A stretch of DNA of 64,000 nt from Thalia democratica (Eukaryota), in the NCBI GenBank assembly GCA_965202585.1, contig OZ241832.1, forward strand, positions 56,296,001-56,360,000. Direction: 5' to 3'. Shown here piece by piece: positions 11,306-54,400 of the stretch. The notes beneath the pieces were generated by a model. It did no database searches, was not told the origin of the DNA, and was given only the letters and a program-made list of their open reading frames with translations. The position numbers were made by a program, and so were the translations under genes. Each line of letters starts with the position of its first letter. Within the stretch, counting starts at the first letter, position 1.

Positions 11306-11380
11306 AAATTTTGCTATGTACTTTATTTCGTTCTGAAGATACGTGTTAAACGTTGAAACTTAGTAAACTATACAAAAATT
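11306..11380 (+). ncRNA. Type I minimal hammerhead ribozyme
   Basis: gtt-CTGAAGA(11333-39)-t-acg-tgttaaa-cgt-t-GAAAC(11355-59)-tta-GTA(11363-65)-aac. Stem I gtt/aac is extended by tgta/taca and aatttt/aaaatt; stem II is acg/cgt. Confidence 0.65.
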
Positions 11381-11438
11381 AGTTGTTATTTTGTATTATA
11401 AAAATGTATATAACATATGTATATTTTCAAGTATTATT

Positions 11439-18266: not shown

Positions 18267-18730
18267 TAGGCTACTTTATATAAATCAGACAGACAGTTTT
18301 GAGTGATAAATCTTTTATATAAAACACAACAAGAAATATTAGCATATACAAAACTATAAATTACTATGACAAACTTTTTAGAAACTAAAAGCTATTTAAA
18401 TCTATTTAAAAGACTTTAAACAATAAACTAAACATAAAAATAACACTTTTAGTAAACAATTAACTTTAAAAGGTTTAACAAACTATCAAAATATAAACCT
18501 GGCTTAAATGTTCTAACAATAAACCACCAGTTGAAATATTAACTTTAAAACAATACTAACAATAAACATTCAAAAATCAGTTCAAATATGTTGTTGCTTC
18601 CAGCTGCACACCAAACTAACTGCTTACATATATCTGCCTGTCATGTTCTGATGTTTAGTTGCATCAGAATTAGTTTGAAACACGTCAGATGATTCTCATT
18701 GGCTAGTGCAATGAAGCGTATCTAACTCAA
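18267..18730. repeat. Inverted copy of the 7672-8128 repeat
   Basis: Direct reverse-complement match, e.g. ctactttatataaatcagacagacagttttgagtgataaatcttttatataaaacacaac. Confidence 0.7.
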
Positions 18731-20559
18731 AATATTCTCTGAGCTCAAGTTTATACAATGAATAATGCACGTATTCATTACAAGGTAATATATTTTGTCT
18801 TATTTGGGTTTATCTTATACAAATAAACAATTATGAGTTTTACAGTGGATTTCTAACATTTATAAAGTAATTATGTACCATTAAAATTATTAATTTTTTT
18901 AATTTCATGAAGTAATTTACATATATCACATATTTGAGTCAGCTAATGCACTAAATTTAAACTAATGTTTTATTTAAAGAGTAATTAGTAGTTTCATTTT
19001 AATATAACTTTTTACTAAAGTAAAAGTTTAATTTTATTTTATACCAGTTTTATCTTTAAATGTATAAAAGTTTAAATATTAATAAAAATGTTATAAAAGT
19101 TCCGATTTTTTATACTTTAACTGTTTTGATTTAGCAACGAGTAATTTGTCAATAAACAATCTTAAACTACAAGATTTTACTCCATAGCCAGTTTAGTAAA
19201 AACTTACTTTAGTATTTAAAATAAGCCATTTTTATACACAAATACAGTGACATTTCAACGACATTCTCTTAAAGATCTTCTTTTGCATTTAGATATTTAT
19301 TCTTAAATCAAAAAGTTGTTTAGTTTTGAGTTCAACTTTTTATTAATAAAAAAAAAATCTAAATCTTTCAGTAAAATTAAATCTAACAATGTTCTAGTAG
19401 TAATAATGTACATAATTATTCGGATCAATATCATTTTATTTAGATGGTAAGATAAAAAAAAAGCTGTTTTATTGTGATTTTAGTAATAACGCGGTCAAGT
19501 TATTTAAATTACATGATAAGTTTTTAATGCACTATAACTAAAATTTAACAAGAAATATAAATTAAAATTATGCTTATAAGATAGCAAGAAATAGCTATTA
19601 TATAGCCAAATTAAAAACTCGTAATTTTTTAAACAAATAAAAATTTACGGCAAATATTTTGTTCTACAAGAAAGTATTATGGATAGATAGTGTATTTGAA
19701 TATAATTAAATTTTCAATCAACAATTTAAGTTGCAGTCCTTAGATGAGTTATTATTTTTCATCATCATGTGTTTATAATAATAGATAGACAGAATACAAT
19801 TTTTTATAATGTGATTAATTTTTAGAAATGTGGCACCCTAAAATATTTTTAAACTACATTTTGTACAATTATGTGATTTACTAACCAAAAAGTTACTTAA
19901 ATTTACGATAAGAAGTTTTATATTAACGATAAAATGCAATTAAAGGAGTTCTTTTTTTAAAGATAAAAATTTAACAAAAAAAAATTTTTTAAAGGAAATT
20001 AAAATTGATAAATTTTTTTTTTTAAGTTCTTGAAATACATTATTAATGTGTACATTTCTTTTATTCATTTAAATACTTAAATGGTAAGGTATTATTGTCG
20101 AATAAATGTTAAAATGGTAATGATTTTTGAGTAATTTTTTCTGCATCTCCTTTCGAAAATGCCTCAGAAGTTTACTTAGAACTTGGTTTAAAATATTTAA
20201 AAAACTATAGAAAACCTTTATGGCGCTGTATTAGGGGTGGGCGATGTTTTTAGACAGTTGATTTCACTTGCATCTCATTGCTTTAAATGTTGAATATTTA
20301 GTTTTTGTTATAAATGTCAATTAAATATATATTTAGTCATAATAAAATGCACACTCATTTACTTACTATTTATACTTACTAGATGCTACTTTAGTTACTC
20401 TATACAAATCAGACAGAGAGTTTAAGTTATGAATCTGTTCAAAAATATTAACCACAATAAAATAATTTAAGCACTATTTCTCACATACAAAATTTATTTC
20501 ACTTTATGTTCAAATTAAGTATAAGTTTATTTAGTGGATATTTAAAAATAATAACTAGA

Positions 20560-22150
20560 TAATTGTTTTTGAAAATGTACAAAATAAACAAGTTTCATCA
20601 GTTGCTGAATGAGTGCGTCAAGTCATTCCCGTACGAAGAAGAAGACTAATATTAGATTTTAGCTCAACAAAAAAAACCCTGATATCTAAAACATTGTAAA
20701 TAAATAAATAATTAGAGACAGCTCTGAAACTCAAAATGATGTTGAGTATTTAAACTCTAAAAACCTGGTAGTTGTTGCAGAAGAGGGAAATAAGCAGGTT
20801 ATTTTACCAGACCAACTTTGACTAATAGCGTTTAATAAATCCTGGAAAGTTTGGCTCAGCAAATGAAACGTTATGAAGCAAAGTGTGGCAGCTGTTTGAC
20901 AAACAGGATTTTCTCATCGACCAGCTGCACTTATAATCTACAACAAAAGTAAAAGAAAACTTGCTAAGTGGCTGAATATTAATAAAGTTTTAAATCGAAT
21001 TTCTCTATTGCAATCGTTGTTATAAAATTACAAAATATAAAGTAAAACTTCAAAAGAACAATTTAAAAAAATTAGGAGTTAGAAATGAAATAAGATTCCA
21101 AACGCTTTTATTGTTTTTATTTATCAATACAGGTCCTACAGAACTAAACTGCACCAAAAAATTAAACGTTGCCACACATACATGTTTCATAATACATATT
21201 ACACGAAAATAAAATAATGCTTCAAGCTGACATTATGTTGCACTGTTAAAGACAGTAGTGTGAAATAGAAAGGAGCTTTTAACAAAGAAGTTATTGAACT
21301 GCAAAGACTCGGTGTTCCAAACCACAAATACACCAATAAAAATAGGAGAACTAAACTTAGTCTAAAACAATCTGGTAATAGTTGTATAAAACTTAAATCG
21401 TAAATATCAATATGAATAACACTTTTTTGAACATATCTAAAATATTGAATTGCTGCTTATCAAACTTATGTTTAGGTAAATAATTTTCGAAATTTAATAT
21501 TTTAAAGCTATTAAAATGTTGCTTTTAAAACAAATTTTACTTAAAAAGAAACTATGGAACATCTGTTAGACGAAAACAGCAACATTGACTTCAGGACGCA
21601 CAGATGAGGAAGGTGGCACCGTTTCGGCTCTATAAGAATGCTTTAATAACATTGACGCATGTTATTGTTGTATTCATGTAGAAAAAACATTTCACACAAA
21701 CTTGAAAGTAATCTTAACTTAAAATTTTTGCTAACTAGTTTGACTTAATGTAAAATCATAGAAGAATTAAATGATAAATATGCTTTTATAATAAGCTCTG
21801 AATATTACATTAATAGTAATGAAAATGTTCAAGATTATGTAAAAAAGATCTATTCTAAACCTAAAATTTTGTAATATACCCACTAAACAAATTTTGTAAA
21901 TGCAGTAGTGTTCTGCAACAACGAACAATTGTGCACAGTCAGCCAATGCTAAAATAAAAAATCATTTAGAACTTGAAACTTTACCTCCTTAGAATTGATT
22001 GATAGTTTGAGAGAATTAAACAACCATCAACCACTTCAAGCAAATTTTGAATTGAAAAGTATAGATAAAGAATTTATAGATTGTTTGTATGAATAACTTT
22101 TTGAAAATGACCTTTTTTCTTATTCAGTTGAAGATAGTAATATCCAACCA
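20560..22150 (+). pseudogene. Older copy of the MULE-like mosaic module repeated at 41-60 kb; includes an EVE-empty site
   Basis: Shares blocks with 48970-49300, 53560-54060 and 44690-45260. Contains ttatcaatacaggtcctacagaactaaactgc (21121) without the viral insert, and an NNCAQSANAK-type MULE C-terminal remnant near 21920. Confidence 0.6.
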
Positions 22151-22979
22151 ATTAGAACTTTAATTAGAATTTAAAATTAAGAGGGGAAGCATCAGAATTA
22201 TGAACAATAAGGTTTACGCTTTGTCATCAGATAAGGTTAGTTTTTATCCTATATCAGCATTATCCACAGCTCATAAACCCTGCAACGGTAATAGGAAGAC
22301 TGTGTCTTCTGAGAAATGATAAATTTGTTTTATTTAACCATTTGAAAGAGCTTTATTAAATGAGGTAAAACTACAGTTGATGTAATTTAACTGATATTTA
22401 AACTGTAACATTTTTGTTGCATGGTAAAAGTTAACACTGATGTACTTTTGCTCATTTTTCAATACTTTACTTTCTCTTAAATTAGACATAAACTAAGTCT
22501 GATGAAGATATGAGCTGTTTAACATAGCAAAGTAGAATATAAAATTATTTAACAAGCAATAAGTGAAAATTTTAAGAAAATAAACTGATAACAACCTTTC
22601 AAAGTTTATTTAACAACAGTTCTTCAAATAACATTCCAGACCAACTTGAAATTTAATCGATAATAAAATGGATGATTTCTTATATAAAAAATTCCTGAGT
22701 TTAAAGTTGCAATCATAGTAATGAAATTAACAAAAACTCTTTAAAATTTTTGAATGAACAGTGACAAACAAGATATAAAAAGGGATCATATAAATAACAT
22801 CAAATTATTTATTTTTAGCTTTTTCAGTCAAACCATCTGCACCATATAGTAAAAAGAGAAATTTAGTTATTCTATTAGGATTTTCAGATAGATTGCTTAC
22901 CTCTTTAAAAGGTCTTTCAAAAATCCTTGACATTGTAAACCAGTTTGAATGTTGTTTTTTGAGTTGAGCTGTAATAAAA

Positions 22980-23378
22980 AAGGAATCTCATTGCTCTTTC
23001 AGCACTTGCCTGTGAGCTTTTTATGAAAACTATAAGGATATATCAACTTATACCACTGTATAGAGCTAGTGGCTCGGGGAAAAATTTGCTTGGTAACTTA
23101 TTTACTCCTGTATACACAGCAACTCTTCCACCACATGCTAGTTGAATTGGGAAATTTAGCTTGTCTGTATTCAATAAATGCATTTAAGTTGATGAAATAG
23201 ATTTTTTAATTAATACAAATACATTTTGATGAAAATTTGCTTCCACCAAGTGTAACGGAACTGGGAAAGTATGCTAATGAGATTGACCGCACTTTTAATC
23301 AAAACAAATGTTTGTGATCCGTTCGATAAAATAACATCAAACAAAGATGCAATAAGGAGATTTCTTCAAATTTAGATG
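22980..23378 (+). pseudogene. Decayed superfamily-3 (SF3) helicase fragment, small DNA virus / Polinton-like origin
   Basis: Walker A-like LYRASGSGKNLL (core 23068-23085), Walker B-like CI*VDEID about 35 aa later, ELGKY (motif B'-like), then in a shifted frame LLIKTNVCDPFDKITSNKDAIRRFLQI (motif C hhhxTN plus arginine-finger RRF). Contains stops and frameshifts. Confidence 0.55.
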
Positions 23379-23669
23379 ACAATAGTAATATTTTAGAATT
23401 CTTAAAAGGAATTTTGAACAACTGTAATTTTAAATAATTACTATATTACATAAATTATTTATATATGGTTGCACAAATTTCATCTTATAAAATATTAAAA
23501 AGTTTTAAATTAATTTAAATTAAATATACTTACTAAATAAAATTTAAATTTTTAAGCTTCATAGGTAATAAACTTAATTGTCTATGTGCCATACAGCATC
23601 AATAAGCAAACAACCACTTAATATTGAATAAAGATAAGTTTCTTTGCAAGATTTATTTAAATAATAATA

Positions 23670-23895
23670 ATTTAGTTAAAGACCATTTCAAAATTTTATT
23701 ATCAAAACAATGTTTCACTCACTTGAACCTAGTCTAACGAGATTATCAGTTGAAAAAATCTTATTCAAATAGAATTAGATTTTAGAATTAAACAAGTTTT
23801 CTATTTGAATAAAATTTATGATCTTGTTTGACTAGGTTCAAGCGAGTGAAACATTTTTTGGTAATAAAATTTAAAATTTTGAATTGATCATTCTC
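23670..23895. mobile_element. Small hairpin MITE with ~70 bp inverted arms
   Basis: aatgtttcactcacttgaacctagtctaacgag (23709-23741) is the reverse complement of cttgtttgactaggttcaagcgagtgaaacatt (~23824-23856), with further pairing outward. Confidence 0.6.
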
Positions 23896-23989
23896 CTTTT
23901 AATTAAGTTGAGAAATTTGATTTTTATCTTTAAAGTAAAAAGTAAACAATTAAAGATCCGCAACGAATCTAAAACCTTTGAGAAAACTT

Positions 23990-24560
23990 TATGATTAATT
24001 AGAGTTTCAATAAAAAATGTCAAAACTTGGCCGACGGGCTACAATTTATCAAAAATCAATTAAAATTAAGACAACTCAACAAGGAGGCGCTGCCAGTTGT
24101 CTACCAAAATCTAACAAATGCTTGGGTTGATCATGTTATTTTTCAAGAAAAGTTTCTTAGCTGGTTTTTTTCTGACTGAGAGAACTTGGACAAGAAGAAA
24201 GTGTTTTTTTATACTTAAAAAATTCCTCTAAACATCCGAGTGAGGAGGAACTAATATCGCCTGATGGCAAAATAACTGCCAAGTTTCTGCCTCCAAATGT
24301 AACTGCAATCTTACAGAAAATAGATCAACGTGAGCTTGTGTCTAACAGAAAATCGATTTTAAGAGATTTTGTTTTGCAATCAACTTTCAACATACAAGAT
24401 TATTAAAAAAGAATCAACATGATAAAAATTGTTGTTACCATCTGCTTGAAATATGGTACCACCTTCTGCAATAAAAAACTATGAAAGAAATTGTTGCCAA
24501 TACCAAACTCTTACATGCGATGTTTTTCCTTTGGATGAAACTAAATATAGCGAGTTTAAT
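23990..24560 (+). pseudogene. pogo/Tigger (CENP-B/DDE_1 family) transposase fragment
   Basis: LPVVYQNLTNAWVDHVIFQEKF...KHPSEEELISPDGKITAKFLPPNVTAILQKIDQ matches the Tigger LPVxY..NAWM...HP....DG.I...FLPPNTT.LQPxDQ signature; contains stops. Confidence 0.85.
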
Positions 24561-28574: not shown

Positions 28575-28942
28575 TATTATCAGGCAAAATTTAACCTGGT
28601 ATTTCTGATGAATCTCAACCATTTAAAGCAACCTTAATTTAAATAAGATAAATTGAATTTTTATTTTTTACTGTCAAACAACATTCAAGTAAAACAGTAA
28701 AACTATTCCACTTTTTTTATATAGTGAAAAAAACATCACTCTCAAACTCTACCCCTTGCAACAATAAACATTTTCTGAGGACTTCAGTTATTACCAAATC
28801 TAACTTTCATGAAGTATTTAGAAATTACTTCATCTTAATTACAGATTAAAAAAAATTTTAAGCTTTTAAAAACTCAATTTAACTTATTACAAATTGAAAT
28901 AATTAACTAGTTAAGGACTTTAAAATTTAAACTGATTTTTTA

Positions 28943-31900
28943 CTAAAGCTACTGTTGTGAATGATATCTATTATAACATATAACAAAACTCATAAATTAA
29001 AAAAATTGACACACTAGTTAAACTAACTTTTAGTGGTGAGGCAGCCACTTTTCAGTAGGATCCAACAGGTAGAAAGGTAATGATTAGAAAATTAGTTGGT
29101 ACACTTGAGGAGAAACACTTATCATTTCTTCACAAAGAAAACTTACAAATAGACTTTTTTGACCTTTAACCTCAGCGCTACTAATAAAAATTAAATTGGT
29201 AGCGCGGAGTTTTAAACAAGTAAACTAAATTATCACAGTAATATAATCGAAAAGAGGAAATATAAAACATTAAGAAAGTGTATATTTTCAAGAACATGAT
29301 CATTAAAGAAAGTATTTTTTATAAAAAATCTTGAAGAAGATAACACGAACAAATTCTCACAAGTGTAAAACTAGCAGCTTAAAATGAAGTTAATGTCGTT
29401 AATTTCAAATGACTTTTTTTACTTGATGTTTTTGTTTAGACTGTTAATAGTTTTTTTTTAATTTTATATTATACTCTGTTTTTGATAAAGAGTTGTTAAA
29501 AACATTTGTGTTGAAACAATCTTTTAAACTTTTTTATCTTTAAGTACTGTTAAAGTTGACCTGTTTAACGTTCATTTAGGTCTACTATTAATTTGTATTG
29601 ATTTCTATATTAGATCAGTTTATAGTATATTTCGTTGTTTACTAGCGTAAAAAGTAATAAAGAAATTACGAAAGTTAAGAGAGAAGGAGATTGGTATGGA
29701 AGCTACCAAACTAAAACACTTTATTTAATTTTTTGTCATACGTTGCTAATTTGTGGTTATTTTCTTTATTACAAACGAAATACATAAATATAGTTAACCT
29801 TACACATTTAATTTATACTTTAAAAGAATGAGATAAATTTTAAAAACGTAAAAAACTATAAATGAGATTATTTCCTTGTGATGCTGAGCTAACTAAAATT
29901 ATTTGTAAAATATATCTAATTAAAGTAAAGCATAAGTTTAATGTTACAGCTATTAAACGTGTCAGTGTTTTAAAACAGCATCAAAAAAGTATAGATAGTG
30001 AAACTGTATGTATATCTTTTTAGTAGAAAGGTATATTTATACAGTGTTTAATTGAAAGTTAACTAGTTAAAAATGTAAAGCTATGAACAAACGAAAAAAA
30101 AATGATTAAGTGTAATGCAAAATTGATTTCAAGTAGATAGACTTGAAAAGTTATTTGTATATATACTTTTATGTTATAGATTAATCGATATAGACCATAC
30201 TGTTAGCTAAAACAACCAAATATTGTTTAAATTACTAAATAGAGATTTGCTGTATTTTTTTTAACTTTTTCAATTCAAATATTAAAGGAAAAAGCATGCT
30301 TGAACTTTTTTTCTATATCCTTTTTTTTTATGCAGGTTTAAAAAAATTCTATTTTGTTTAACTGTTCAAGTTACAGCTAAGTTCTGTTTTTTGTGTTATT
30401 ATAAAAACTCAACTGTACTTTTATTTAAAATTTGTTATATTTATTATTATCGCAATTAATCAAAAATACAACAAAAATTTTATATTTTAGTAACAAAATG
30501 CTTATAATAGCATTTAAATAATAGTAAAACAGTTGATTTAATTTCATTTTGATTTAAGCTTTAACAGCATTAATTTTTTTAGGTCTTAACATTTTAGTTT
30601 GTTTCGAAATAATTGGTTTACGTCAAACTCTGTAAGATGATTACACAACTTCTAAAGAACTTTAAGGTTTCTAAAACCTTCAACAAGCTCTAAGTTCGCT
30701 TAACACCAGATTTGGTAAAAAGCACTGCATTTAGTTATAAAAATATCCGGCAGTAAAACTTAAATTATAATTTTATTTTATTCAAACCTACTGTCGAAGA
30801 TTTCTTAACACTTTTAACAGTGTTTTTTACCAATGCTGATGTGATATGAAAATTCAAGAAACATTTAAATAGGGTTACCAAACTCATTTTCATAATCGCC
30901 TTGTTACCATACATTTTAAAAGTTATTTCCCCTTTACCAACCAATGCTCCTTTACTAATTAATTATTCACTTACTTCTTTTTACTTTATTTGTTATAGCC
31001 AACTTTTCGAAATATTTAACTAAAGATAAGAAACATAATTTGAAATAACAACGTGTCTAAAAAATAAAGATAGCAAACAATGAAAAATATTGGTTGCGAG
31101 TATATAACATATATATTACATACACTCAACCCTGTCTTCACAATCAAAACATGTGTTTTAAAAGAACAAAAACCACTAAGCAATAGTAAAAATTACAATA
31201 AAATAAAACTAAATATAAGATAAAACAATGCAAAAAATAAGTTGATTTGTTCATAAGTTGTTTATAAGATAAGCTATTCAATTTTATTTGAAACCTCATG
31301 TGTTTTTTTTTTGTATGATTGTTTAAAAATTTTGCTATGTACTTTATTTCGTTCTGAAGATACGTGTTAAATGTTGAAACTTAGTAAACTATACAAAAAT
31401 TAGTTGATATTTTGTATTATAAATATGTATATTACATATGTATATTTTCAAGTATTATTATCTACAAGTAGTTGAACATTTTTGAAGCATTAAAACCATT
31501 AACTTTTTTACTTACAAAAAGAATCATACAGGTAATCTAGACTAATTTCAATTTATAGCTTATAAGTTTGATGTGAAAAATTTTACTTATGTTCAAGGTT
31601 TTGATTTTATGCAGCTTTTTATTGATATTCTTAATTTTTTCATTTAACATGCGAGATGAATTCTACACAAATACATAGAAGCAATTTCCTGTTCAAGTGC
31701 TTTTACTTTTAAGTTGACAATGCAAAAAACAGATAATTATTTTCGATAAAACTTAGTTAAAGAGTTCAACGAATATAAAACAATAAGTAACCAAGCTTAA
31801 AAAATAGAACACAGATAAAAAAGATATTAAAGTAAGATTAAGGATGTCAATAACACAGTAAAACTGATCATTATACCAATTCTAAGCATTCTTAACGTAA

Positions 31901-36480: not shown

Positions 36481-37540
36481 TACACAGAAATATGTCGTAA
36501 TAAATAAATAAAACTGTTTAAATTTGTTAATGTTAAATATTACATGATTTTATTAGAAAAACTCAAGTTTATATTATGAATAGTTAAACTGTAGAATAAG
36601 TATTTACTGAATTTTATGCTTTGATAACATTTATACTTTTAAAACTTATTTAAAAATTTATAGTATTCTGTATTATTAAAACAAAATAGGTTTTGACTTT
36701 TTATAATTTAATTTTTGAGTTTTGTTAATGTTTTGTTGGCATTTGGTTAAAAATCTAATTTTATATAGTATTTAATTCTAAATGAAAGATTATCAGATAT
36801 TTTTTTTAATAATTTTACATAGTTCTTAATTCCATTCAAATTATGACTTGTTTAATTAATTGAATACAAATTGCTTTAATATCAGTACAAATTATAACCA
36901 ATTATACACTTGAATTTTTCGAATAAGCAACATTTTACTTTTGTTTAGATTTTCATGATAAGATTATAGATAAACAACATTGTTAAGACTTGACAAGGCT
37001 GTATTTTTTTGCCACCTAAACTTTGCAGTGAATAATTTATTAAATTTACATTAATATAATTTTTTAGTATCATTAAAACGTTTACAATTTTATTTGTATT
37101 CTATCCTGTTGTCAGGGTTGCCACTCGTTTTTTCAAAAATTTTTCCAGGGTTTTCAAATTTCTTCCAGGTTTTTAAAAGTACACATTTTTAGGTCTATTT
37201 TTAGTTTTAAGTTAATTTCTTTATAAGAAACTGTGTTAAATAGTATAAACATTGAAAATTTATTGTAAAGTTACTTTGAAAATGTTTTTTAATAAAAAGA
37301 TTTTTTGATGATGACAAAAAAATCTTACTTATATGATATGATTTTTAGACTTATATAAATTTTATGTTAATTTTTACTAATTAAACATAATAAGTTTTTA
37401 TAAAGTTATTAATTAATTTCACTTAAAAACATCTATAAATTACTTAATTACTAATTTATGTCTAATTAGTACTGATTAGTCTAATTAGTGCCAATTCATT
37501 TAATTATTTTTTTCTATATATATCAGTGTGCTTCATTTTT

Positions 37541-37600
37541 ATTGCTACCTAGACTCTGAAGATCCTTTTTTAGGTGAAACCGGGTTAGTAAGGTTGCAAT
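37541..37600 (+). ncRNA. Type I minimal hammerhead ribozyme in the 5' pseudo-LTR
   Basis: attgc-t-acct-ag-act-CTGAAGA(37556-62)-t-cct-ttttt-agg-t-GAAAC(37576-80)-cgg-GTT(37584-86)-agt-a-aggt-t-gcaat. Stem I is extended (act/agt, acct/aggt, attgc/gcaat), stem II is cct/agg, and stem III is near-palindromic (aaccgggtt). Confidence 0.85.
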
Positions 37601-37722
37601 TTTGTCAATAAATTATTAATTAATTTGGCTCTCTGTTTCAAGATTGAGCACTCATTTGGTTTCCAAATTGTACAATTAAGCTTCTTATCTATTTAAGATG
37701 GGCGCTCATATCAAACCTTGAA

Positions 37723-39822
37723 ATGAATTCAAATGACATTTTGAAGCACATTGTAATAAATTATTCACTTAAAAACATACCTATAGCGAATGAACTTACA
37801 TACAGGCAAGCAATTTATCAGAAACTGCATAAATTTATTCAGAACCTTCGCTGGAAGGCCTTTTGGTACTAGAAACATGAGGACAGCGCAATTAATTTTG
37901 GCAATGAAGACAATACTTCCTTAGGATTCCCAACTAGAAATTCTGCACCTGATTGCGAAGACCTTAAACATTTAGAGCATGATCTTTACCTTTTAGTTAA
38001 GTCCATAGAATTCAGAAGATATAAATCACCTTTCCAAAAAAAAAAAGTTTCTGATATTAAGAAGATAAAATCTTCAAATAAAGTCATTATTTCTAGCGAC
38101 AAAACAGATAATCTCTATTCTATTGATAAAAAGGATTACAATCGACTTATGAAAAACTGCTTGATCAGCAACTATAAGATAGCTCCAAAAAATTGCATTG
38201 AACATATTAATTTATACGCAGCATCTATTGTTAAGGAATTAAACATAAGAGGAAAAGTAAAAAAAATGTACCCAAAAGAGAGCTTTTTTGACAATCAAAG
38301 ATCATAAAAAAAGTTTCCCAAATTCAATAGAGTGTAGATTAATAAATACGATGAAATCAGATATAGGAAGAATTGCTAAAAAGATACCTGATAAAGTTAA
38401 TTTCGACATCAAACTCAAAACCAGCCTCACTCAATGGAAAAATTCATTTGAGGTAATCGACTGGTTTAATAAAATCGAAAACAAAAAGAAGCTGTGCTTC
38501 TTGAAATTTGATATCGACAAGTTTTATCCCTCAATATCAAAGAATGAATTAATTTAGGCATTGAAATTTGCTGAGACATATACTAATATAACTCCTCAAG
38601 ATATAAATATTATATTACATTCCGGCATGAGTGTCTTATCAGATTCTTAAGGTGTAGAATGGGTTAAGAAAAATGACACTAATAACTTCGGTGTGCCTAT
38701 GGGCAGTTATATGGGTGCAGAAATTTGCGATCTGATAGGATTATATATTTTGTCCGATTTATCTTCAATTGACACTTTAGTTTCATTTGGGTTATACCGG
38801 GACGATGGTCTAACGGTTTTAAATAAATCCAAATGTGAAAATGAAAGGGCAGCAAAAACAATCAGAAAGATTTTCCAGAATCATGGGTTTAAGATAATTG
38901 TGGAAGCAAATTTAATTCAAACTGACTATTTAGACATCACGATGAATTTACCAAATAACACATATGCCCCATTTCGAAAAGAAAACTCGCATATAACATA
39001 TATAAACAACCAATCAAATCACCCTAAACTAATAAGAAAGAGCATAGGCCCAATGGTTAGTAACAGATTAGGTAAACTTTCCAGTAGCGAAGAGATTTTC
39101 AATAACAACAGAAAAGACTACAATGAAGCCTTAGCTATAAGCGGATACAACAAACTCAAAAGCTACAACGAAACTATCTCAAAGCCCAAAAGAAAGACCA
39201 GAAAGTCCAGGAAAATTATTTACTTCAACCCCCCATTCTGCAATTCTGTAAAAACAAACATTGGTAAAAAATTCTTGGATCTTGTACGACTTCATTTTCC
39301 AAGAAATAACAAACTTCACAAGATCTTTAATAAGAACACCATTAAAATTTCATATAGTTGCCTTCCAAACCTAAAAAATGTAATAAATACCCATAACAAA
39401 AGGATTTTAGACGACTCAAACAAAAAGATAAGAATTGCAACTGTAGGGACAAAACCAACTGCCCTTTTAAAGGAGAATACTTACTAAAAGGTATCTATAA
39501 GGCTTCTATCAGGAATAAGGAATACATAGGATCAACAGGGGTATCTTTCAAAAAAAGATGGCAACAACACAAATACAGCGTACTCAAGAAATCCCAAACA
39601 ACTACTCTATCCAAATTTGCCATTTCAAACAATATCAATTTTGCCGAAATCAAATGGCAAGTGCTATACAAAGTTAATAGCTCAGTCCCGAAGAAAGCTG
39701 ACAACTGTTTAATCTGCAATCTGGAGAGAATGGCTATAGCCGAAGCAGATAGAATTAAATCATTAAATATCAGAAAAGAATTAACCGCTATGTGTCCCCA
39801 TTATAAGTCTTGTTATTTTTGA
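37723..39822 (+). pseudogene. Penelope-like reverse transcriptase + GIY-YIG endonuclease ORF, disrupted
   Basis: YSLKNIP...LRWKAF, SDKTDNLY, TIKDHK..RLIN..KSDIG, QWKNS..VIDWF, FDIDKFYPSI, PMGSYMGAEICDL, GLYRDDGL, then CNC..CP..GIYKA..YIGST..FKKRW..CLICNLE..LN.R.E...CPH. At least three TAG/TAA stops and a frameshift near 39425. Confidence 0.92.
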
Positions 39823-40083
39823 TTTATTGTTTGTTTGTTGTTTCTTATTTTTACCATCTTATATGTTAAACTTAATCTTTAATTTTTTTAGACTTTTATA
39901 AATTTTATGTTAATTTTTACTAATTAAACATAATAAGTTTTTATAAAGTTATTAATTAATTTCACTTAAAAACATCTATAAATTACTTAATTACTAATTT
40001 ATGTCTAATTAGTACTGATTAGTCTAATTAGTGCCAATTAATTTGATTATTTTTTTCTATATATATCAGTGTGCTTCATTTTT

Positions 40084-40143
40084 ATTGCTACCTAGACTCT
40101 GAAGATCCTTTTTTAGGTGAAAACGGGTTAGTAAGGTTGCAAT
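40084..40143 (+). ncRNA. Hammerhead ribozyme in the 3' pseudo-LTR (stem III variant)
   Basis: Same as 37541-37600 except GAAACCGGGTT is GAAAACGGGTT. Confidence 0.7.
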
Positions 40144-40830
40144 TTCGTCAATAAATTATTAATTACTTATATGATAGATTTTTTGTGTCAAATCAAAATT
40201 TTACTACTGAAAATGTAAAAATTGTTAAAAGTTCCAGGTTTTTCCAGGTTTCTTTCAAAATTTCTTAAATTCCAGGTTTTTCCAGGTTATTTTTGCCTAA
40301 ATTGTCAAATTCCAGGTTTTTCAGGTTTCCAGGTGAAGTGGCAACCCTGTTTTGCTTTTGTGCTATTAACATGTTTTATTTTTACGTATTAAAATGTAGG
40401 TCGTTGTATAGTTTATGTGTTAATTAGACTAAATAACAAACATTTAAAAAGTTTTTAGAAAATGCAACCATATTAAACTAGCTATCTCCTTTAAATTAAA
40501 TTCAAGTAGAAAATTTACCTGCAGAAATTTGTGCAAAGAGGCGAAGAAACTGATGATGTAGCTTCTAAGTGGCTTTAAAATTAAATTGAGTTAGGAGTAA
40601 TTCACACATCAGGTACTTTCCCTATGATGAGGACTCACACATCAGGGTTTCCAACTTGATGTTAATGCCATCTCTGATCGTTTTCTTCAGCTTGGTCAGC
40701 TTCACTCAAATTACTCGCAGCAAACTGTTAATTATTTTATCAATTAAAAAAAAATATGTCTAAATTAAAATAATAATATATTTAAATTAAAAAAGCGCAT
40801 AAATTAAATTAAATTAAAAAGCGCATACGT

Positions 40831-41449
40831 AAAGAAATGGAACAAAAATTGGCAAACCAAATGTGATGAAGCTGAAGCTAAAGTTAGGACCAATAAAGAT
40901 ATTATTTACTCATTGGAAGCTGATGTAATGCCTGATAGACAGAACCAGGGTTATGTAATAGTCCCAAATGATAGTAATGTGGGCAATGTGAAGGAGTATG
41001 TAAAGCAAATTGATTCAGGGACAGCATCCACATCACAGCAAGTTGCTATTAGAGGGACTTTCACTTTGGAGGAGTTCAAGGGTTTGCATGACAGTATAAG
41101 TAAAGACATGAAGATGACTGAATATAAAGGCACAATTACCATGTCAGACATAGAATTTTATTCTTATGATAGGGTGCAGGTATTCAAGAAAATTTTCGAA
41201 TGTGCTCAAAAGGACTCAATTACTGGGAAAATTTTAAAGGATGATTTAGGAGCTGATATAACAGATATCTGTTTTATCTGGTTAATAAGGGGAACAAATT
41301 TCGATAAAATTAAGGATGGCCTAAGTCAAGTTACCAAGAAACGCATTGAGACCCTTATTAGCAGATACAGTTTTAAGAACCGTACGATAGATGCGGACAC
41401 AAAAAATATGACAAGATTACAGAATGACACGTTAACTGTATCCAGATTT
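40831..41449 (+). other. Endogenous viral element, Phenuiviridae-like nucleocapsid, copy A (5'-truncated)
   Basis: Viral part of ORF 40913-41608; near-identical to 50725-51310. Confidence 0.85.
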
Positions 41450-41608
41450 AGGTCCTACAGCACTAAACTGCACGACAAAATTAAACGTTACCAAACATAC
41501 AAGTTTCATTATACTTACTATACGAAAAAAGATAAATGCTTTAAGCTGACATTGTGTTGCACTGTTAAATACTGTAATGTGAAATGGAAAGGAATTGTTA
41601 ACAAATAA
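40913..41608 (+). CDS. Chimeric ORF: phenuivirus-like N fragment fused to a transposon-derived C-terminus (231 aa as tracked, TTG start)
   Basis: Residues up to TLTVSRF are N-like. RSYSTKLHD... onward matches repeat sequence also present at the empty sites 21121 and 53571. Confidence 0.55.
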   Translation: MEADVMPDRQNQGYVIVPNDSNVGNVKEYVKQIDSGTASTSQQVAIRGTFTLEEFKGLHDSISKDMKMTEYKGTITMSDIEFYSYDRVQVFKKIFECAQKDSITGKILKDDLGADITDICFIWLIRGTNFDKIKDGLSQVTKKRIETLISRYSFKNRTIDADTKNMTRLQNDTLTVSRFRSYSTKLHDKIKRYQTYKFHYTYYTKKDKCFKLTLCCTVKYCNVKWKGIVNK

Positions 41609-44600
41609 AATATTGAACTGCAATGATTCAATGTTCCAAACCACAAAAATACCAATAAATATAGGAGGACTAAACTTAGTCAAAAACAATCTGGTAATAG
41701 TTGTATAAAATTGAAATCGTAAACATCAATATAAATAACAACTTTTTAAACATATCTAAAATAGTAAATTGTTGCTTATTAAACTTATTATTAGCTAAAC
41801 ATTTTTTGAAATTTAATAATTTTAAAGCTATCAAAGTTATGCTTTTAAAACAAGTTTTACTTGAAAAGAAACTATGGAACATCTGTTAGACGAAAATAGC
41901 AACATTGACTTCGTTGCTTAAAATTTCAAAATCGGTTAAAAGAAATGAATTAGATAGAGGCAAACAAAACATATTTTGGAAAGAGTAAAAAAAGACTAGA
42001 TCTTTTCAAAAAGTATCAACTTTTCTATTGTAATTTACATAGCTATGTTTTTTATCACAAAGATTTTAATCAAAACCGAAATTACATAATGTACAATATA
42101 TCTTTATAATATCAGTTTATGGTAATAACTTGAAAACAGTTCATTCTAATATTGTAAATATACATCCAGAAATCAATTACAAAAATTTTATTTTGAAACA
42201 GGTTGTATCTGTTTTCAAAGAATACATAAAAAAATTGTTGTTGTTAGAGTTAGAAAAACGTATGCCAACAAACATACGCTTCATGATGTCTTTTAATGTT
42301 GTTTACCAAGTTGGTTATGTTGTTTAGTTGATTTGTGTTTAATGAGCTAAATATTTTATGATAAAAAAACATATACAAGCCGAAAACTGCACGTAATAAT
42401 AAAAATAAATGTAATGTAAACATTTAAAGGCTATAAAGGAGTCACATCCCTACATGGAGGATTTTTTGGAGTTGCCTAATGTAAAGTCTTTGTACTGTTC
42501 TGACCACAAGCAAGTTATAATAGATAAATACGAAGGGTTGATGACTTATGACTGTTTGATTAGTTAGTTAAATTGGTATTTATAAAGATAGACCAAACTG
42601 TTGAATAATGTCAACTGTTACTTTATTATATCTGTCATAACATATTTATCATCCCTGTTAATTTTTTGTTCATGTTAACTCAAAAAGCAAATTTGTACAG
42701 TAAATATTTTTAAAAAATAATAATACTTAGTTGACAGTAAAGATTTTTTTGTTGTTTTAGTTTTTTGCTATAAAAATTTCTTCATTATATAAAGCTAATA
42801 GAGTAGGACAAATGATATCAACAATTACACCAACACTCATGTGGAAAAAATTGTGTCACAAAATAGGAAATAATGTTTTCAAAAATAAAATATACAGTTT
42901 CAAAATTTTTGTAGAATTACTATAAACAAATTTAAACAGGCGATATATTGATACAAAAGTAATTTATCTATACAAAACGTTTGTATGGATAAAATTAAGG
43001 GGAATCTTAGAAAACTAAATGTCAGCAGTTCGTCTTTAGCTGCAGAGATGCGGTCTAAGAAGAGAGCTGCAAGCCACGTTATCCCAAATAAAACTAAAAC
43101 TAAACATGCTTCACTTTTAAGCTAGTCACGTTCAAGTGACAATAAATCTTAACTAACTTCTTTTACAAGTCCTTATGTAGCACCACTTTGAATCGAAATG
43201 ATGTTTTTTTTTCACATTATGTATTGATAATATCTATGATAATATAATTGATAATATCTAATAGCTAAGCAGATTATAAAGGTTATACAAATCTAAAATA
43301 TCCTTGACACATTAAAAGGAGATCATTCACTTAAGGAAACATAGTAAATAGATATTTCGAAATAACTCGACAACAGAGCAAAAATAATTTTGATGGAACA
43401 TATCTCAATTGTTTTAAACAATGTAACATTGTAAAAGAACTTGAAGAATCTAACTTCATCTTAAACTTTACCACAAGTGATTTGACACAATGTAATTTAG
43501 ATAATGCTGCTGACACTTTTAAAAACCAGATGGCCATATAAGTGGAGTTAATGTTTGCCAAATTGCAAAATGTATTTCAAGGAGAGAGATTTGCAATCTG
43601 TCCATCTGATCTCCCAGCTATGAGAAAAAAGATGGTGGATAGGCTTGCTATTGGCTTTCTTTTTAATTACAACTGTTAGTAAGGTAGATATGCATAGATG
43701 ACAATATCCTAAGACACATACTGAAAAACAATTAAAAACGGAATCTACACTAAATCAAAGGTACAATAACAAAACATTTTAATATAATGATTCTGCCTAC
43801 GCCTACCCTCTATTTAAAACACATAAACTGGAAAATTCTAAAATAAGTAAAACAAGAGTGCTTGACATACCTGTACGCCTAGCACAGCATCTTTACATTA
43901 ATTTTTAGATAAGAACCAAATTTATATGAAAAATGTTACAAGTACTTTTTTTTCAAGTTCTCTTCAGAAAATATACGATAACAAACAGATATAAGATATA
44001 ACATAAATCTTATAAAGCTGCATGCAGCAACAACTTCCAGATGTACATATTTCACACAACAACACGTAAACTTGTTCAATTTATAGGTGAAAAACTAAAT
44101 AGTTCTAGTTGTAATTTATACGATAAGAAAATAAATTTTCTCAAAAATAAAAGTTTAACCCCATTCAAAAATTTTATTGAAACCCTGATATATATAGGGA
44201 CGCACAACAGGTGTCAAATATGAAAAGAAAATGTGCTGTAAATTATAGTAGTGGTAATAAATTTAGAATATTTAAAAATATTGCAGACGAATTTCAGTCA
44301 ATCAAAATTGAAAATTTCAAAAATCATTTAAGTTAATAAATAACACTAATGACAACTCAATTGATTGGATTTGCCTGCTGTCATATTAGATGACATTAAA
44401 ATACTTAAGAAAATGTTGTTTTTTTCACTAAGAGATAAATTGATTTTGTACTTTGACAAAACCTTAAACTGCTCAGTATATCATATCAGCACAGTTTCTT
44501 TTCTTTTAGAAAGGGTGATAAAAAAACTAGATCACAGACTCAGATATTAGGGGTCTATTTACTCGATAAATCTAGTAATAAAAGTATTTATACCTAATTT

Positions 44601-49801: not shown

Positions 49802-50403
49802 TTTTTTATTAAAAACTATGTCTGATCACTTAAATAATAGATAATAAATTTGAACTGATGCTAATTGCAATCGAAGAAAACTCTGGTCACATGAAGTGGT
49901 ACAAGTGACTTTGTGGCACAAGTTTACGCCAAAACGGGGAAAACATAATTTTCCTTAGGCTTGACAGCAACAGCACATATGCATTACATATGGAGCAAAA
50001 ATTATCGTAATAATTTGCAAAATTGTTTAATATATTTGTTTTGTTCCTAAAACAAATAGCTTAAACAAGCATGCAATAGAAAGTTCAGAATCATGTAGTT
50101 CTAAAGATATGGAAGAAAATTTCATATCCCTACCAGTTTCAGAAGAGGAGTGTAAACTTATTTATAGTGAAAACAGTAATTTAACTGGAAAATGTATTAG
50201 GTTGACTAAAAATGATTTCACCAATGTAAGTATGTAACTTGTTTCTTAATCTTAATAAAGTTTTATATCGAACTTTTCTATCACAATTGTTGTTATAAAA
50301 TCAGAAAATAGTAAGTAAAACTTAAAAAGAACATTTAAAAAAACTTAGGAGTCAGAAATGAAATAAGATTCCAAAGGCGTTTATTGTTTTTATTTATCAA
50401 TAT

Positions 50404-51310
50404 TTAGACGCCAGTTGGTGAAAGTAATTATGTCTTATTTGGAATTAGAAAGTACTAGGGAAATTTTGAGACCTATGCCATGTCAAATGATGGTAGCTCT
50501 GCACACTGAGCTTCAGATGACTGAGGACAGACTTGGGAGAGAAGGGGAATCAGATGCAGATGATCCCCGATTTGCAGATGTTTTGACCCTTGATTTGGCT
50601 GTAAGAGAAGAAGTTGTTACGAGAGAAAACATCGAAATCATGAGGAAGGAAATTGAGCTTACTAAAAGAATTATGAGATTCGATGCTCATAATTCTGGGA
50701 AAACAAAAGCACAAAAGAAAGTACAAAGAAATGGATCAAAAATTGGCAAACCAATAAAGATATTATTTACTCATTGGAAGCTGATGTAATGCCTGATAGA
50801 CAGAACCAGGGTTATGTAATAGTCCCAAATGATAGTAATGTGGGCAATGTGAAGGAGTATGTAAAGCAAATTGATTCAGGGACAGCATCCATATCACAGC
50901 AAGTTGCTATTAGAGTGACTTTCACTTTGGAGGAGTTCAAGGGTTTGCATGACAGTATAAGTAAAGACATGAAGATGACTGAATATAAAGGCACAATTAC
51001 CATGTCAGACATAGAATTTTATTCTTATGATAGGGTGCAGGTATTCAAGAAAATTTTCGAATGTGCTCAAAAGGACTCAATTACTGGGAAAATTTCAAAG
51101 GATGATTTAGGAGCTGATATAACAAATATCTGTTTTATCTGGTTAATAAGGGGAACAAATTTCGATAAAATTAAGGATGGCCTAAGTCAAGTTACCAAGA
51201 AACGCATAGAGACCCTTATTAGCAGATACAGTTTTAAGAACCGTACGATAGATGCGGACACAAAAAATATGACAAGATTACAGAATGACACGTTAACTGT
51301 ATCCAGATTT
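50404..51310 (+). other. Endogenous viral element, Phenuiviridae (Tenuivirus/Phlebovirus-like) nucleocapsid, copy B (longest)
   Basis: TLEEFKGLHDSISKD..IEFYSYD..DDLGADITDICFIWLIRGTNF..TLISRYSF..DTLTVSRF parallels tenuivirus N as recalled (TLADLQKAINDISKD..IEYAGYD..DTLAKDM..VRGTGF..TLVSRYGI..NAITLGRL) and phlebovirus N (RGN..LINKY.LK..DELTLSRV). The insert is GC-richer than its flanks and absent at paralogous sites. Confidence 0.88.
50415..50789 (+). pseudogene. 5' ORF of the viral insert; probable frameshifted N-terminal part of the same viral gene
   Basis: Open from the left junction; overlaps the N frame, which is itself open from 50693, across an A-rich stretch. Confidence 0.5.
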
Positions 51311-51469
51311 AGGTCCTACAGCACTAAGCTGCACGACAAAATTAAACGTTGCCAAACATACAAGTTTCATTATACTTACTATACGAAAAAAGATAAATGC
51401 TTTAAGCTGACATTGTGTTGCACTGTTAAATACTGTAATGTGAAATGGAAAGGAATTGTTAACAAATAA
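50774..51469 (+). CDS. Chimeric N-like/transposon ORF, copy B (231 aa as tracked, TTG start)
   Basis: Same structure as 40913-41608 with five amino-acid differences. Confidence 0.55.
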   Translation: MEADVMPDRQNQGYVIVPNDSNVGNVKEYVKQIDSGTASISQQVAIRVTFTLEEFKGLHDSISKDMKMTEYKGTITMSDIEFYSYDRVQVFKKIFECAQKDSITGKISKDDLGADITNICFIWLIRGTNFDKIKDGLSQVTKKRIETLISRYSFKNRTIDADTKNMTRLQNDTLTVSRFRSYSTKLHDKIKRCQTYKFHYTYYTKKDKCFKLTLCCTVKYCNVKWKGIVNK

Positions 51470-54400
51470 AATATTGAACTGCAAAGATTCAATGTTCCAA
51501 ACCACAAAAATACCAATAAATATAGGAGGACTAAACTTAGTCAAAAACAATCTGGTAATAGTTGTATAAAATTGAAATCGTAAACATCAATATAAATAAC
51601 AACTTTTTAAACATATCTAAAATAGTAAATTGTTGCTTATTAAACTTATTATTAGCTAAACATTTTTTGAAATTTAATAATTTTAAAGCTATCAAAGATA
51701 TGCTTTTAAAACAAGTTTTACTTGAAAAGAAACTATGGAACATCTGTTAGACGAAAATAGCAACATTGACTTCGTTGCTTAAAATTTCAAAATCGGTTAA
51801 AAGAAATGAATTAGATAGAGGCAAACAAAACATATTTTGGAAAGAGTAAAAAAAGACTAGATCTTTTCAAAAAGTATCAACTTTTCTATTGTAATTTACA
51901 TAGCTATGTTTTTTATCACAAAGATTTTAATCAAAACCGAAATTACATAATGTACAATATATCTTTATAATATCAGTTTATGGTAATAACTTGAAAACAT
52001 ATCATTCTAATATTGTAAATATACATCAGGAAATCAATTACAAAAATTTTATTTTGAAACAGGTTGTATCTGTTTTCAAAGAATACATAACAAAATTGTT
52101 GTTGTTAGAGTTAGAAAACCGTATGCCAACAAACCTACGCTTCATGATGTCTTTAAATGTTGTTTACCAAGTTGGTTATGTTGTTTAGTTGATTTGTGTT
52201 TAATGAGCTAAATATTTTATGATAAAAAAACATATACAAGCCGAAAACTGCACGTAATAATAAAAATAAATGTAATGTAAACATTTAAAGGCTATAAAGG
52301 AGTCACATACCTACATGGAGGATTTTTTGGAGTTGCCTAATGTAAAGTCTTTGTACTGTTCTGACCATTGAATAAACATTAGAATAACTACTCAAACTAT
52401 CATTTTTTTTCAAACCAACTTTGACTAATAGCGTTTAATGCTGCTCACCAGATACTACATTTACAAATAGAGAAGTTCATACTAGCTGTCGCAAGAAAAT
52501 ATTAAAAACCGTTTCTAAAAACGTATGAGTAGCATTATGTAAGATCATGTCTAACATGTCAGGAAGTTAAAACTGTTTCAGTAAATACAGATGAAGGTTA
52601 CTAGGATAACTATAGAAAAATAACGATAAAAAACTGGTTTGGACAATTTTATGTTTGCAGGTGTGAGCATATCATACATAAGCACGTTAAAAGAAGATAT
52701 TAATTCAACATTTCTTCATTTACAAAAATATAAAACAAAAACTGCATTGGCTATTGCCTAGGGTTTCAATCAAATGGTTAGTACGTATGGAATAGACTTA
52801 AAAAACGTCATTGCTGTTTGTAAGTGTTATGTTCTTAAAAAAACTTTAGATATTAGTCTTTATTGAAAATCATGTCTAGTCACTTAAATAATAGAAGATA
52901 AATTTGAACTGATGCTCATTGCAATCGAAGAAAACTCTGGTCACATGAAGTGGTACAAGTCACTATGTGGCGCAACTTTAAGCCAAAAAGCAAAGTAATT
53001 TTAAAACAAAATATGGTACAACAACAGATATTACATTTAGTCCTCGAATGGGGAAATTATAATATCATTTAGGCTTGACAGCAACAGCACATAAGCATTA
53101 TAATGGACACAAAATTATTGTATGATTTCCAAGATTGTTTTTTATTTGTTTTGTTCCTAAAACAAAACAAAGACTTAGAGAAGTTGGACAAGAAGAAAAG
53201 GCTATTTTGATCCTCAACATAACAACTTAAACAAGCATGCACTAGAAAGTTCAAAATCATGCAGTTCTGAAGATGAGGAAGAAAATATCATATCCTTACC
53301 AGTTTCAGAAGAGCATTGTAAACTAATTTATAGTAAAAACAGTAATTTAACTGGGAAATGTATTAGATTGACTAAAAATGGTTACACCGATGAAAGTATG
53401 TAATTTGTTTATTTGTTTATTAATCTTAATAAAGTTTAAATTGAAGTTTTTTATTACAATTGTTGTTATTAATTGACAAAATAGTAAGTTAAACTTCAAA
53501 AGAACATTTAAAAAAGTTACGAGATAGAAATAAAATAAGATTCCAAAAGCGTTTATTGTTTTCATTTATCAATATAGGTCCTACAGCACTAAACTGCACG
53601 AAAAAATTAAAGGTTGCCACACATACAAGTTTCATTATACTTACTACACGAAAAAAGAATAATGCTTTAAGCTGACATTGTGTCGCACTGTTAAATATTG
53701 TAATGTGAAACGGAAAGGATTTTTTAACAAAGAAACGATTGAAATGCAAAGATTCGATGTTCCACATCACAAAAATACCAATAAAAATAGGAGGACTAAA
53801 CTTAGTCAAAAACAATATGGTTTTAGTTGTATAAAACTTAAATCGTAAACATCAGTATGAATAACAACATTTTTTAAATATCTAAAATAGTAAATTGCTG
53901 CTTATTAAACTAAAGTTAAGCTAAATATTTTTTGTATTTTAATAATTTTAAAGTGCTGCTTTTAAAACAAATTATACTTAAAAAAGTATGGAACGAACAT
54001 CTGTTAGACGAAAACAGCAACATTGACTTCATTGCTAGAAAAATGTTAAAATCGGTTAAAAGAAATGACTTAGAATTTAAGCTCTTAATCACCGTCTTTT
54101 TAAGTCGTTGTGTCAAGATTATGGTAGTAAACTTTCAGTTTTACTTTTCCATACGGAGGTCCGCTGGTTATTACGTGGAAGAGTTTAACGCGATTTTTTG
54201 AATTGAGAAAAAAAGTAAAATCTTTTCTTAAGGAACGTGACTATGACCATGTCAAAGATATGGAGTCAAAAAACTTGTCAAAAAGCCGAAAACTGCATGC
54301 AATGTTAAAAATAAATGTAATGTAAATATTTAAAGGCTTTAAGGGAGCCACAACTGTACATAGAGGAATTTTTGGAGTTGCCTAATGTAAAATCTTTGTA

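Follow-up and report, generated by a model that had tools for sequence, protein, structure and literature searches.

A truncated nucleocapsid-like viral insert at the 3′ splice site of a decayed Foldback/MULE-like transposon, in debris blocks that resemble a unistrand piRNA cluster

The window analyzed here is a 64,000-nucleotide stretch of Thalia democratica DNA (G000:C8:56296001-56360000; the contig labels C1 to C8 refer to genome G000). Its plus strand carries a 907-bp insert resembling a viral nucleocapsid (N) gene, which lies within the intron of a decayed Foldback/MULE-like transposon. This insert is a non-retroviral endogenous viral element (nrEVE; more generally, EVE) in transposon debris, a kind of sequence that is already known. 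What the DNA records directly are its two junctions, the intron in which it lies, a host copy that was already dead, a duplication of the filled unit, the co-orientation of the neighboring fragments and the presence of other viral inserts. We regard it as an evenly balanced proposition that the insert is a fossil in a dead transposon, held in a trap that resembles a unistrand cluster for PIWI-interacting RNAs (piRNAs), and that both its position at a splice acceptor and the open tail behind it are coincidental. The insertion site and its paralogues within the window comprise the following features:

50069-50225, plus strand: remnant upstream exon of a Foldback/MULE-like transposase gene, about 80% identical in DNA to the inner part of an intact element on C5
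50226-50403, plus strand: 5′ part of the transposon intron, with a GT donor at 50226 and a T-rich tract up to 50403
50404-51310, plus strand: viral insert, a 26-nt leader and residues 1-340 of a 530-amino-acid Tenui_N-like protein, with internal deletions
50402-50407, plus strand: left copy of a 6-bp direct repeat, whose AG (50406-50407) forms a new acceptor-like site directly after the host tract
51307-51312, plus strand: right copy of the repeat, four virus-derived bases and the original intron AG (51311-51312)
51313-51556, plus strand: decayed downstream exon, with a one-base shift at its start and a premature stop at 51467-51469
40814-42506, plus strand: second filled copy (copy 2), 5′-truncated, with an identical right junction and an N match from 40814
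20975-21593, plus strand: empty paralogous unit A, acceptor AG at 21131-21132
53235-54074, plus strand: empty paralogous unit B, with its acceptor AG at 53576-53577 and a mutated homologous donor at 53392

Comparison of the junctions with empty sites delimits the insert to 50404-51310, with one T of ambiguous placement. Host DNA ends at 50403 on the left and resumes with the AG at 51311-51312 on the right, without the loss of a single host base; the virus is thereby positioned two bases ahead of the old intron AG, and the downstream exon begins at 51313. The GC content of the insert (36%) differs from that of its flanks (26-28%). The hexamer ATTTAG is found at both junctions (at 50402 and at 51307) and is absent from all 25 empty sites recovered from the genome. 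The junction letters of the filled site and of the empty sites A and B are those given in the initial annotation of this DNA, which had also placed the virus just before an acceptor-like site. This site proves to be the true 3′ splice site of the transposon, at the end of a conserved GT..AG intron.

The evidence for this intron comes from dispersed relatives of the host fragment. The genome contains 62 matches to the downstream exon; this exon shares 76% amino acid identity with an open exon of 81 amino acids in the copies on C1 and C5. An AG stands at the exon start in 21 of 21 dispersed copies examined; the upstream exon is matched in 17 of these, and all 17 have a GT at the predicted phase-0 donor. 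A phase-0 GT..AG intron of 97-187 nt is common to three dispersed subfamilies (54-100% amino acid identity to the query), and, judged by this conservation, the intron at the insertion site is real. The end of the upstream exon (50225) was set by the donor conserved in the relatives. Of the two donors previously proposed, that at 50226 stands, while 53396 corresponds to position 50230; the true homologue in unit B is 53392, which reads GA. The splice phases had been described as mismatched, and they are so because of a one-base shift at the exon start, which is common to all 12 C8 sites (10 empty, 2 filled) and absent from the C1 and C5 copies. Since every C8 site has this shift, the host copy was dead before the virus arrived.

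Members of the transposon family that are more complete than the C8 remnants show what has been lost. The intact C5 relative measures 8.6 kb and is bounded by terminal inverted repeats (TIRs) of about 2.3 kb that consist of tandem repeats, and by a 10-bp target-site duplication (TSD); the C1 copy has 40-bp ends matching those of C5 and inverted arms of about 2.3 kb, and no TSD was found for it (a TSD in one of two copies). These near-intact copies (C5:26.758-26.767 Mb and C1:98.908-98.918 Mb) are 95.7% identical and intron-rich; their gene is split into many small exons, the last of which is PHD-like (E 9e-5). At least two more dispersed subfamilies have near-identical members, which suggests recent activity. 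No TIR match was detected in the C8 regions examined, where what is left of the units is internal sequence, at most about 850 bp long and about 80% identical. The initial annotation expected a host element of the MULE/NOF class; the long TIRs and the 10-bp TSD of the C5 relative agree with this assignment, whereas none of the element exons tested matched the Pfam MULE models. Candidate D, D, C/H and E motifs of the MULE-type DDE transposase pattern, which includes a CxxH-like motif, are common to the exon translations of the subfamilies, and a homologue search with the exon carrying the first D of the transposase gave no significant hit among 10 candidates. Drosophila FB-NOF is a Foldback/Mutator element. 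Tm1, another Foldback/Mutator element, has composite TIRs and TSDs of 8-10 bp (PMC3169594), much like the tandem-repeat TIRs and the 10-bp TSD of the C5 relative. The present family differs from Tm1 in having no Pfam MULE match, many small exons and a PHD-like last exon, and the window remnant is internal and TIR-less. Eleven diverged copies of the exon with its acceptor, several of them about 20 kb apart and all empty, lie at C2:89.06-91.87 Mb, a region that is, by its sequence, another amplified remnant of this family.

The inserted sequence belongs with a family of unnamed proteins of 517-571 amino acids from metagenome collections. Two of these, P0001 (68% identity) and P0022 (79% identity over 99 amino acids), have a Met1 that aligns with the ATG at 50430; in the downstream N frame, 160 of 188 residues (85%) are identical to P0022, the closest relative. 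This homology to an RNA-virus-type gene is one mark of an nrEVE, and, judged by the 85% identity to an intact relative, the insertion is young. Matches to Pfam PF05733 (Tenui_N), which covers Tenuivirus and Phlebovirus nucleocapsids, are weak but recur across the family: the window open reading frame (ORF) scores 19.9 bits (E 6e-4), P0001 22.9 bits (E 7.6e-5) and P0003 24.1 bits (E 3.1e-5), all below the gathering cut-off of 25 bits, which only a genomic homologue at C8:63.72 Mb passes (28.5 bits). Because the window ORF falls below the gathering score, we did not file it as a Phenuiviridae nucleoprotein; we call the insert phenuivirus-like and do not assign it to that family. The relatives are also about twice as long as the solved nucleocapsid chains (245-257 amino acids) and have a long N-terminal part predicted to be helical. 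The family profile matched solved nucleocapsids in the PDB at E 0.04-0.8, and an AlphaFold2 model of P0001 was too poor for a fold search (mean predicted local distance difference test score 44). In the ESM Atlas, the N core gave only leads under 0.9 and a 1224-amino-acid ORF gave none; our searches turned up no contig of this N family, either viral or metagenomic; and PF04196 (bunyavirus L polymerase) had no match in the genome, in a search whose positive control likewise had no match.

At the right junction, the point at which virus ends and host begins can be read from the relatives. Full-length N proteins extend about 190 residues beyond it, and 11 of 13 rows of the relatives alignment continue with a near-invariant Cys-Asp pair, whereas the window continues with RSYSTK..., which matches the transposon exon; hence RSYSTK... 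is not viral, as had been proposed. By the same token we rejected the possibility that the empty sites are deletion derivatives of a longer viral sequence. The insert is in sense orientation, its N gene is truncated internally at the 3′ end, and no poly(A) is present at the 3′ junction.

A DNA search with the empty unit returned 31 matches, and those spanning the site represent 27 distinct sites. The census of filled and empty copies that had been recommended as a check thus gives 25 empty sites and two with the filled right junction. The annotated site at 50404-51310 is accordingly not the only filled one, the second (copy 2) having gone unmentioned. The two differ at 18 positions in 1618 bp (98.9% identical), lie 9,861 bp apart, and are the only places in the assembly at which a DNA search finds the insert. 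By these measures copy 2 arose by local duplication, and the two filled sites record one insertion event. Both assembly copies are broken, each by its own deletions or truncation, and copy 2 lacks the 5′ third. As an observation in its own right, a Penelope-like element (37342-40168) lies 650 bp upstream of copy 2 between 284-bp direct repeats that are 97.9% identical; by their motifs, its ORFs at 38651-39487 and 39397-39822, neither with a Pfam match, are presumably reverse transcriptase-like and GIY-YIG-like, respectively.

Independent data were available from three public runs (X1, X2 and X3), which stem from at most two samples and two studies, are of a type taken to be DNA, and contain 68-72% of the sequence words queried; no RNA run was listed as containing 50150-51650, which does not bear on expression. 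Contig 12 of X2 spans both junctions (50338-50726 and 50750-51367) and extends 73 and 57 host letters beyond them, which confirms that insert and host DNA are colinear at either end; contigs of X1 and X3 cover the left junction, and the letters of the left repeat are identical in the covering contigs of all three runs. The joint of an empty allele (50403 to 51311) was found in none of the three. The public-run allele differs from the window at several sites, four of which, in the insert and exon, carry the letter of copy 2, and its broken zone is longer (162 letters in X2 contig 12, against 23 in the window). By this comparison the insertion is common to the samples, and the window holds a more deleted version of it. 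Contig depth is higher over the insert (128-176) than over unit B (34-50 in X1 and X3), but such depth does not measure copy number and was not used as evidence.

The reading frames of the insert are these:

50430-50789, plus strand: 5′ N frame from the native ATG, matching residues 1-99, then out of frame, with a stop after 119 codons
50727-50754, plus strand: broken zone, lacking letters that the relatives, copy 2 and the public-run allele retain; the gap between the two P0022 matches
50789-51469, plus strand: fusion frame, which begins at the first internal ATG and has 174 codons from N and 52 from the transposon exon, then a stop

As previously described, an N frame crosses the right junction without a stop and gains 52 residues from the transposon before ending at 51467-51469. 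The implied fusion from the N start does not hold for the assembly copy, in which the frame that fuses is not that of the start codon. Because the latter frame breaks and stops at 50789, a fusion would need the internal ATG at this position. The stop of the 5′ frame overlaps this ATG (50787-50791), most likely as a by-product of the deletion. The transposon tail, open for about 51-52 codons past the junction, exceeds that of nine of the ten empty paralogues on C8; the tenth is open for 84 codons without any virus.

The consequences for splicing follow from where the host tract remained. It lies left of the insert, with 68% pyrimidine as at the empty sites, and is directly followed by the new AG at 50406-50407; the old AG now lies 907 bp from this tract in a virus-derived context of 58% pyrimidine. 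First-AG scanning is an established principle of 3′ splice-site choice, and from it any plus-strand splicing would more likely favor inclusion of the virus than its removal. If the phase-0 donor is joined to the old AG, translation is predicted to stop after 4 codons; read through the new AG, the donor frame would stop after 16.

Such a position is within reach of chance. With about 15 exon-sized pieces spread over about 4 kb, we estimate that an insertion into such an exon-rich remnant would land about 3 bases or less from an acceptor in some 2% of cases, and a fusion would be in frame in one of three. The location at the splice site is thus probably coincidental. The copy census, with 25 of 27 sites empty and the two filled ones tracing to one event, likewise supports a single insertion rather than a repeated target. 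Targeting of the acceptor was rejected as an explanation: a second N insert in a paralogous unit sits elsewhere, and the acceptor of that unit is empty. A trans-spliced or processed-RNA chimera was rejected as well, the left flank retaining the intron and the right junction the intron's AG.

The surroundings of the insert are repetitive on a larger scale. A block at about 56.30-56.38 Mb has one paralogue at C8:30.13-30.24 Mb and another, in inverted orientation, at 29.98-30.01 Mb, and in these three C8 regions 49 of 52, 69 of 74 and 20 of 22 fragments, respectively, lie on one strand (orientation was scored with a library made of a small set of ORFs from the examined loci). The fragments of transposable elements (TEs) and EVEs thus lie on one strand, as in a unistrand cluster, although these counts are not independent. 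With each element family counted once, eight of nine face the local majority strand (p 0.02; a hand tally that leaves out one host BACK-domain ORF and one short minus-strand fragment). AT skew follows the blocks, with values of +0.06 to +0.11 in most block bins and of -0.06 to -0.09 in the inverted block.

Within these blocks of co-oriented transposon debris are three independent viral inserts. Besides the one studied here, an independent N-like insert at C8:30150178-30151295 (42% amino acid identity, residues about 136-520, one frameshift) occupies the paralogue of unit B, between the equivalents of 52974 and 53233 and upstream of the empty acceptor. Some 8 kb beyond the right edge of the window, a paralogue of the window unit 20556-24244 contains a picorna-like RNA helicase fragment with one stop (PF00910; C8:56367633-56369054); this fragment is the only match to RNA_helicase in the genome (1 of 28 candidates) and lies 22 kb from the insert on the same strand. 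Across C8 and C6, all six viral inserts face the local majority strand (p 0.016, likewise by hand tally). As separate observations, a further N-terminal N-like fragment occurs at C8:30251113-30251337 and a further N-like insert at C5:14849820-14851188, and at C6:67116245-67130777 two N-like inserts and a rhabdovirus-type nucleocapsid ORF (461 amino acids, PF00945, E 2e-44) lie within 15 kb, all on the plus strand and with MULE and Penelope-like fragments nearby.

Several findings weigh against the favored reading set out below. The orientation counts are inflated, since the blocks are paralogous and several queries share their regions of origin, and Pfam does not confirm in which sense the "U_" queries, three hAT-like ORFs and the MULE pieces code. 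In the C8 blocks alone the viral tally is three of three (p 0.125); two flank bins also show a large AT skew; and the copies of a cold-shock-domain element at C6 (its C8 relative is described below) face minus, minus and plus. One N-like insert (C8:63719271-63720062, a 398-amino-acid ORF) lies not in TE debris but among host-gene-like ORFs, presumably tubulin-like and dynein-like. No LTR (long terminal repeat) retrotransposon sequence borders the insert, unlike the pattern in Aedes, and a plain blunt insertion does not explain the 6-bp repeat.

Under the reading that we favor, a complementary DNA (cDNA) copied from a phenuivirus-like nucleocapsid RNA, of which it covers the 5′ two-thirds, integrated once into the germ line. 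Its target was a TIR-less, already frameshifted Foldback/MULE-like fragment, which lost no bases, and the reverse transcriptase was presumably supplied in trans by some host retroelement. The 6-bp repeat may derive from a TSD or from templated repair. The host fragment is part of the segmentally duplicated blocks of transposon debris on C8 in which nearly all fragments run one way. By analogy with flamenco-type and mosquito clusters, such a block might be read from the minus strand; the insert could then yield antisense piRNAs against the virus, and for this reason would have been kept and later duplicated.

As to the integration step itself, which is compatible with other readings of the locus, a direct repeat of at least 6 bases touching both junctions arose in only 211 of 20,000 simulated insertions (about 1%), so that the observed repeat modestly exceeds chance. 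We tentatively entertain, while thinking it somewhat doubtful, that the repeat is a true TSD from target-primed reverse transcription, with priming on four bases common with the viral RNA, at an allele already holding two extra Ts. The sense orientation of the insert, the absence of host-base loss and the presence of nearby Penelope-like elements with reverse transcriptase fit such an event, as does the rarity of the repeat in the simulations. Against it stand the absence of the hexamer from all 25 empty sites, the missing poly(A) tail and the 3′ end of the insert within a viral gene. The paralogues speak to the first of these points with a limit, as the left flank of the filled unit is 10-12% diverged from the closest of them, and its pre-insertion letters are not shown. 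The alternative is a copy of the right junction templated during repair. The initial annotation had noted ATTTAG at both junctions and its absence from empty sites, which is correct; microhomology, which it preferred, and a TSD are both compatible with these data.

An account that we consider possible, if less than probable, is that the virus simply landed in gene-poor duplicated debris and is decaying without useful expression, the co-orientation being inherited from one ancestral block. The independent breakage of both assembly copies speaks for this neutral history, as do the single relative orientation of the three paralogous C8 blocks and the chance-compatible acceptor position and frame. 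What it leaves unexplained is that neither of the two N inserts nor the helicase insert has a counterpart in the paralogous blocks, and that all three are nevertheless co-oriented; they entered after the duplication, which therefore cannot explain their shared orientation. In addition, the insert is present in all three public runs with no empty joint listed.

The unusual junction also invites functional accounts. That the virus is exonized or translated as a chimera, either by read-through or by splicing that joins the donor at 50226 with the new AG at 50407, to give a truncated N with a 52-residue tail that could interfere with the cognate virus, strikes us as unlikely. The left junction is a good acceptor (the intact host tract followed by TTAG), the insert starts 26 nt before the native ATG, the tail is longer than in most empty paralogues, and the public runs carry a longer, less deleted allele; a translated nrEVE that limits its cognate virus is reported from Aedes (PMC13643977). 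On the other side, stops come after 119 codons in the native frame and after 16 in the donor frame through the new AG, copy 2 lacks the 5′ third, the empty paralogue that stays open for 84 codons does so without virus, and the remnant lacks the 5′ end of the element. Still more improbable is the stronger claim that the insert was kept because its left end rebuilt a 3′ splice site and captured a truncated N, read from its own start codon into a transposon tail, as a host exon. If true, together with the longer public-run allele, it would mean that a host-made interfering N protein was created in one step, and that the intron of a dead DNA transposon was hijacked inside a locus built of DNA transposons that repeatedly traps RNA viruses. 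Least credible of all is that the virus hides in the intron and is removed together with it on splicing, and that it travels with the transposon at each copying, both of which the initial annotation had envisaged. The insert does lie wholly inside a genuine intron, the old AG survives, and the filled unit was copied once. Removal by splicing fails on the letters, though: the old AG has lost its tract, the new AG behind the real tract precedes it, and the product would stop after 4 codons; it would also restore nothing, because the host copy is TIR-less and already frameshifted. Spread with the element fares no better, since a unit without TIRs allows only passive duplication, as happened once, and the assembly search found no dispersed filled copy beyond the local duplicate.

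The closest parallel to the trap that we favor is in Aedes aegypti, in which unidirectional loci of TEs and EVEs give rise to antisense piRNAs (10.1101/127498); in another study, putative EVEs of a mollusc, a starfish and an anemone are described as sources of antisense 5′U piRNA-like reads (PMC6085071). The C8 locus resembles the mosquito clusters in combining on one strand, over tens of kb, partial RNA-virus genes of several families with TE fragments, and in its nucleocapsid fragments and local duplication (10.1101/127498). It departs from them in that its neighbors are mostly DNA-transposon debris (MULE/Foldback-like, hAT and ISXO2-like) with a Penelope-like element, and in that no LTR borders the insert. 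The precedent for a translated insert is the nrEVE Flavi24, whose ORF is translated and limits its virus; in that study, the nrEVEs were chosen outside piRNA clusters and comprise complete viral ORFs (PMC13643977), whereas the present insert is truncated, broken in the assembly copy and inside TE debris. Among the titles searched, which cover subscription journals only in small part, none concerned an nrEVE sited at the splice acceptor of a transposon.

Taken as a single junction, the insert is an ordinary viral fossil whose value is that of a marker. With its youth and its 25 empty paralogues, it offers a case in which the entry of non-retroviral RNA into a genome can be studied where no LTR element flanks the site. 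It further draws attention to paralogous one-way blocks of DNA-transposon debris that caught genes of both negative-strand and positive-strand viruses; if these blocks do produce antisense piRNAs, the mosquito model of heritable antiviral clusters would extend to loci built of DNA transposons.

Another element in the C8 blocks may be more unusual than the N insert. A 6-kb unit at C8:30230697-30236749 is flanked by direct repeats of 480 bp, which are 99.6% identical and read roughly TG..CA; no TSD was seen. The unit has one open frame of 1502 codons, with a tandem derivative at 30161855-30170441. The middle of this frame matches VP1 of PDB entry 7xr3 (E 2e-41), presumably a crab reovirus polymerase, and its C-terminal 640 amino acids, which include a Y-box-like cold-shock domain, match a high-copy dispersed family (79-97% identity in the 38 scored of 2321 candidates). 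From its sequence, the unit looks like an LTR-flanked mobile element with a dsRNA-virus polymerase-like fusion. The idea that this reovirus-like ORF is a private capture of the cluster was rejected, since the VP1-like part recurs on C4 and C6 at 94-98%. Inside the window, two inverted, about 82% identical solo copies (7673-8128 and 18267-18782) are related to the direct repeat of this element. An intronless ORF of 281 amino acids with a C-terminal RING finger (12893-13738; PF13639, E 3e-8) adjoins a duplicated 2.5-kb segment whose two copies (8913-11438 and 28935-31459) are 96.5% identical.

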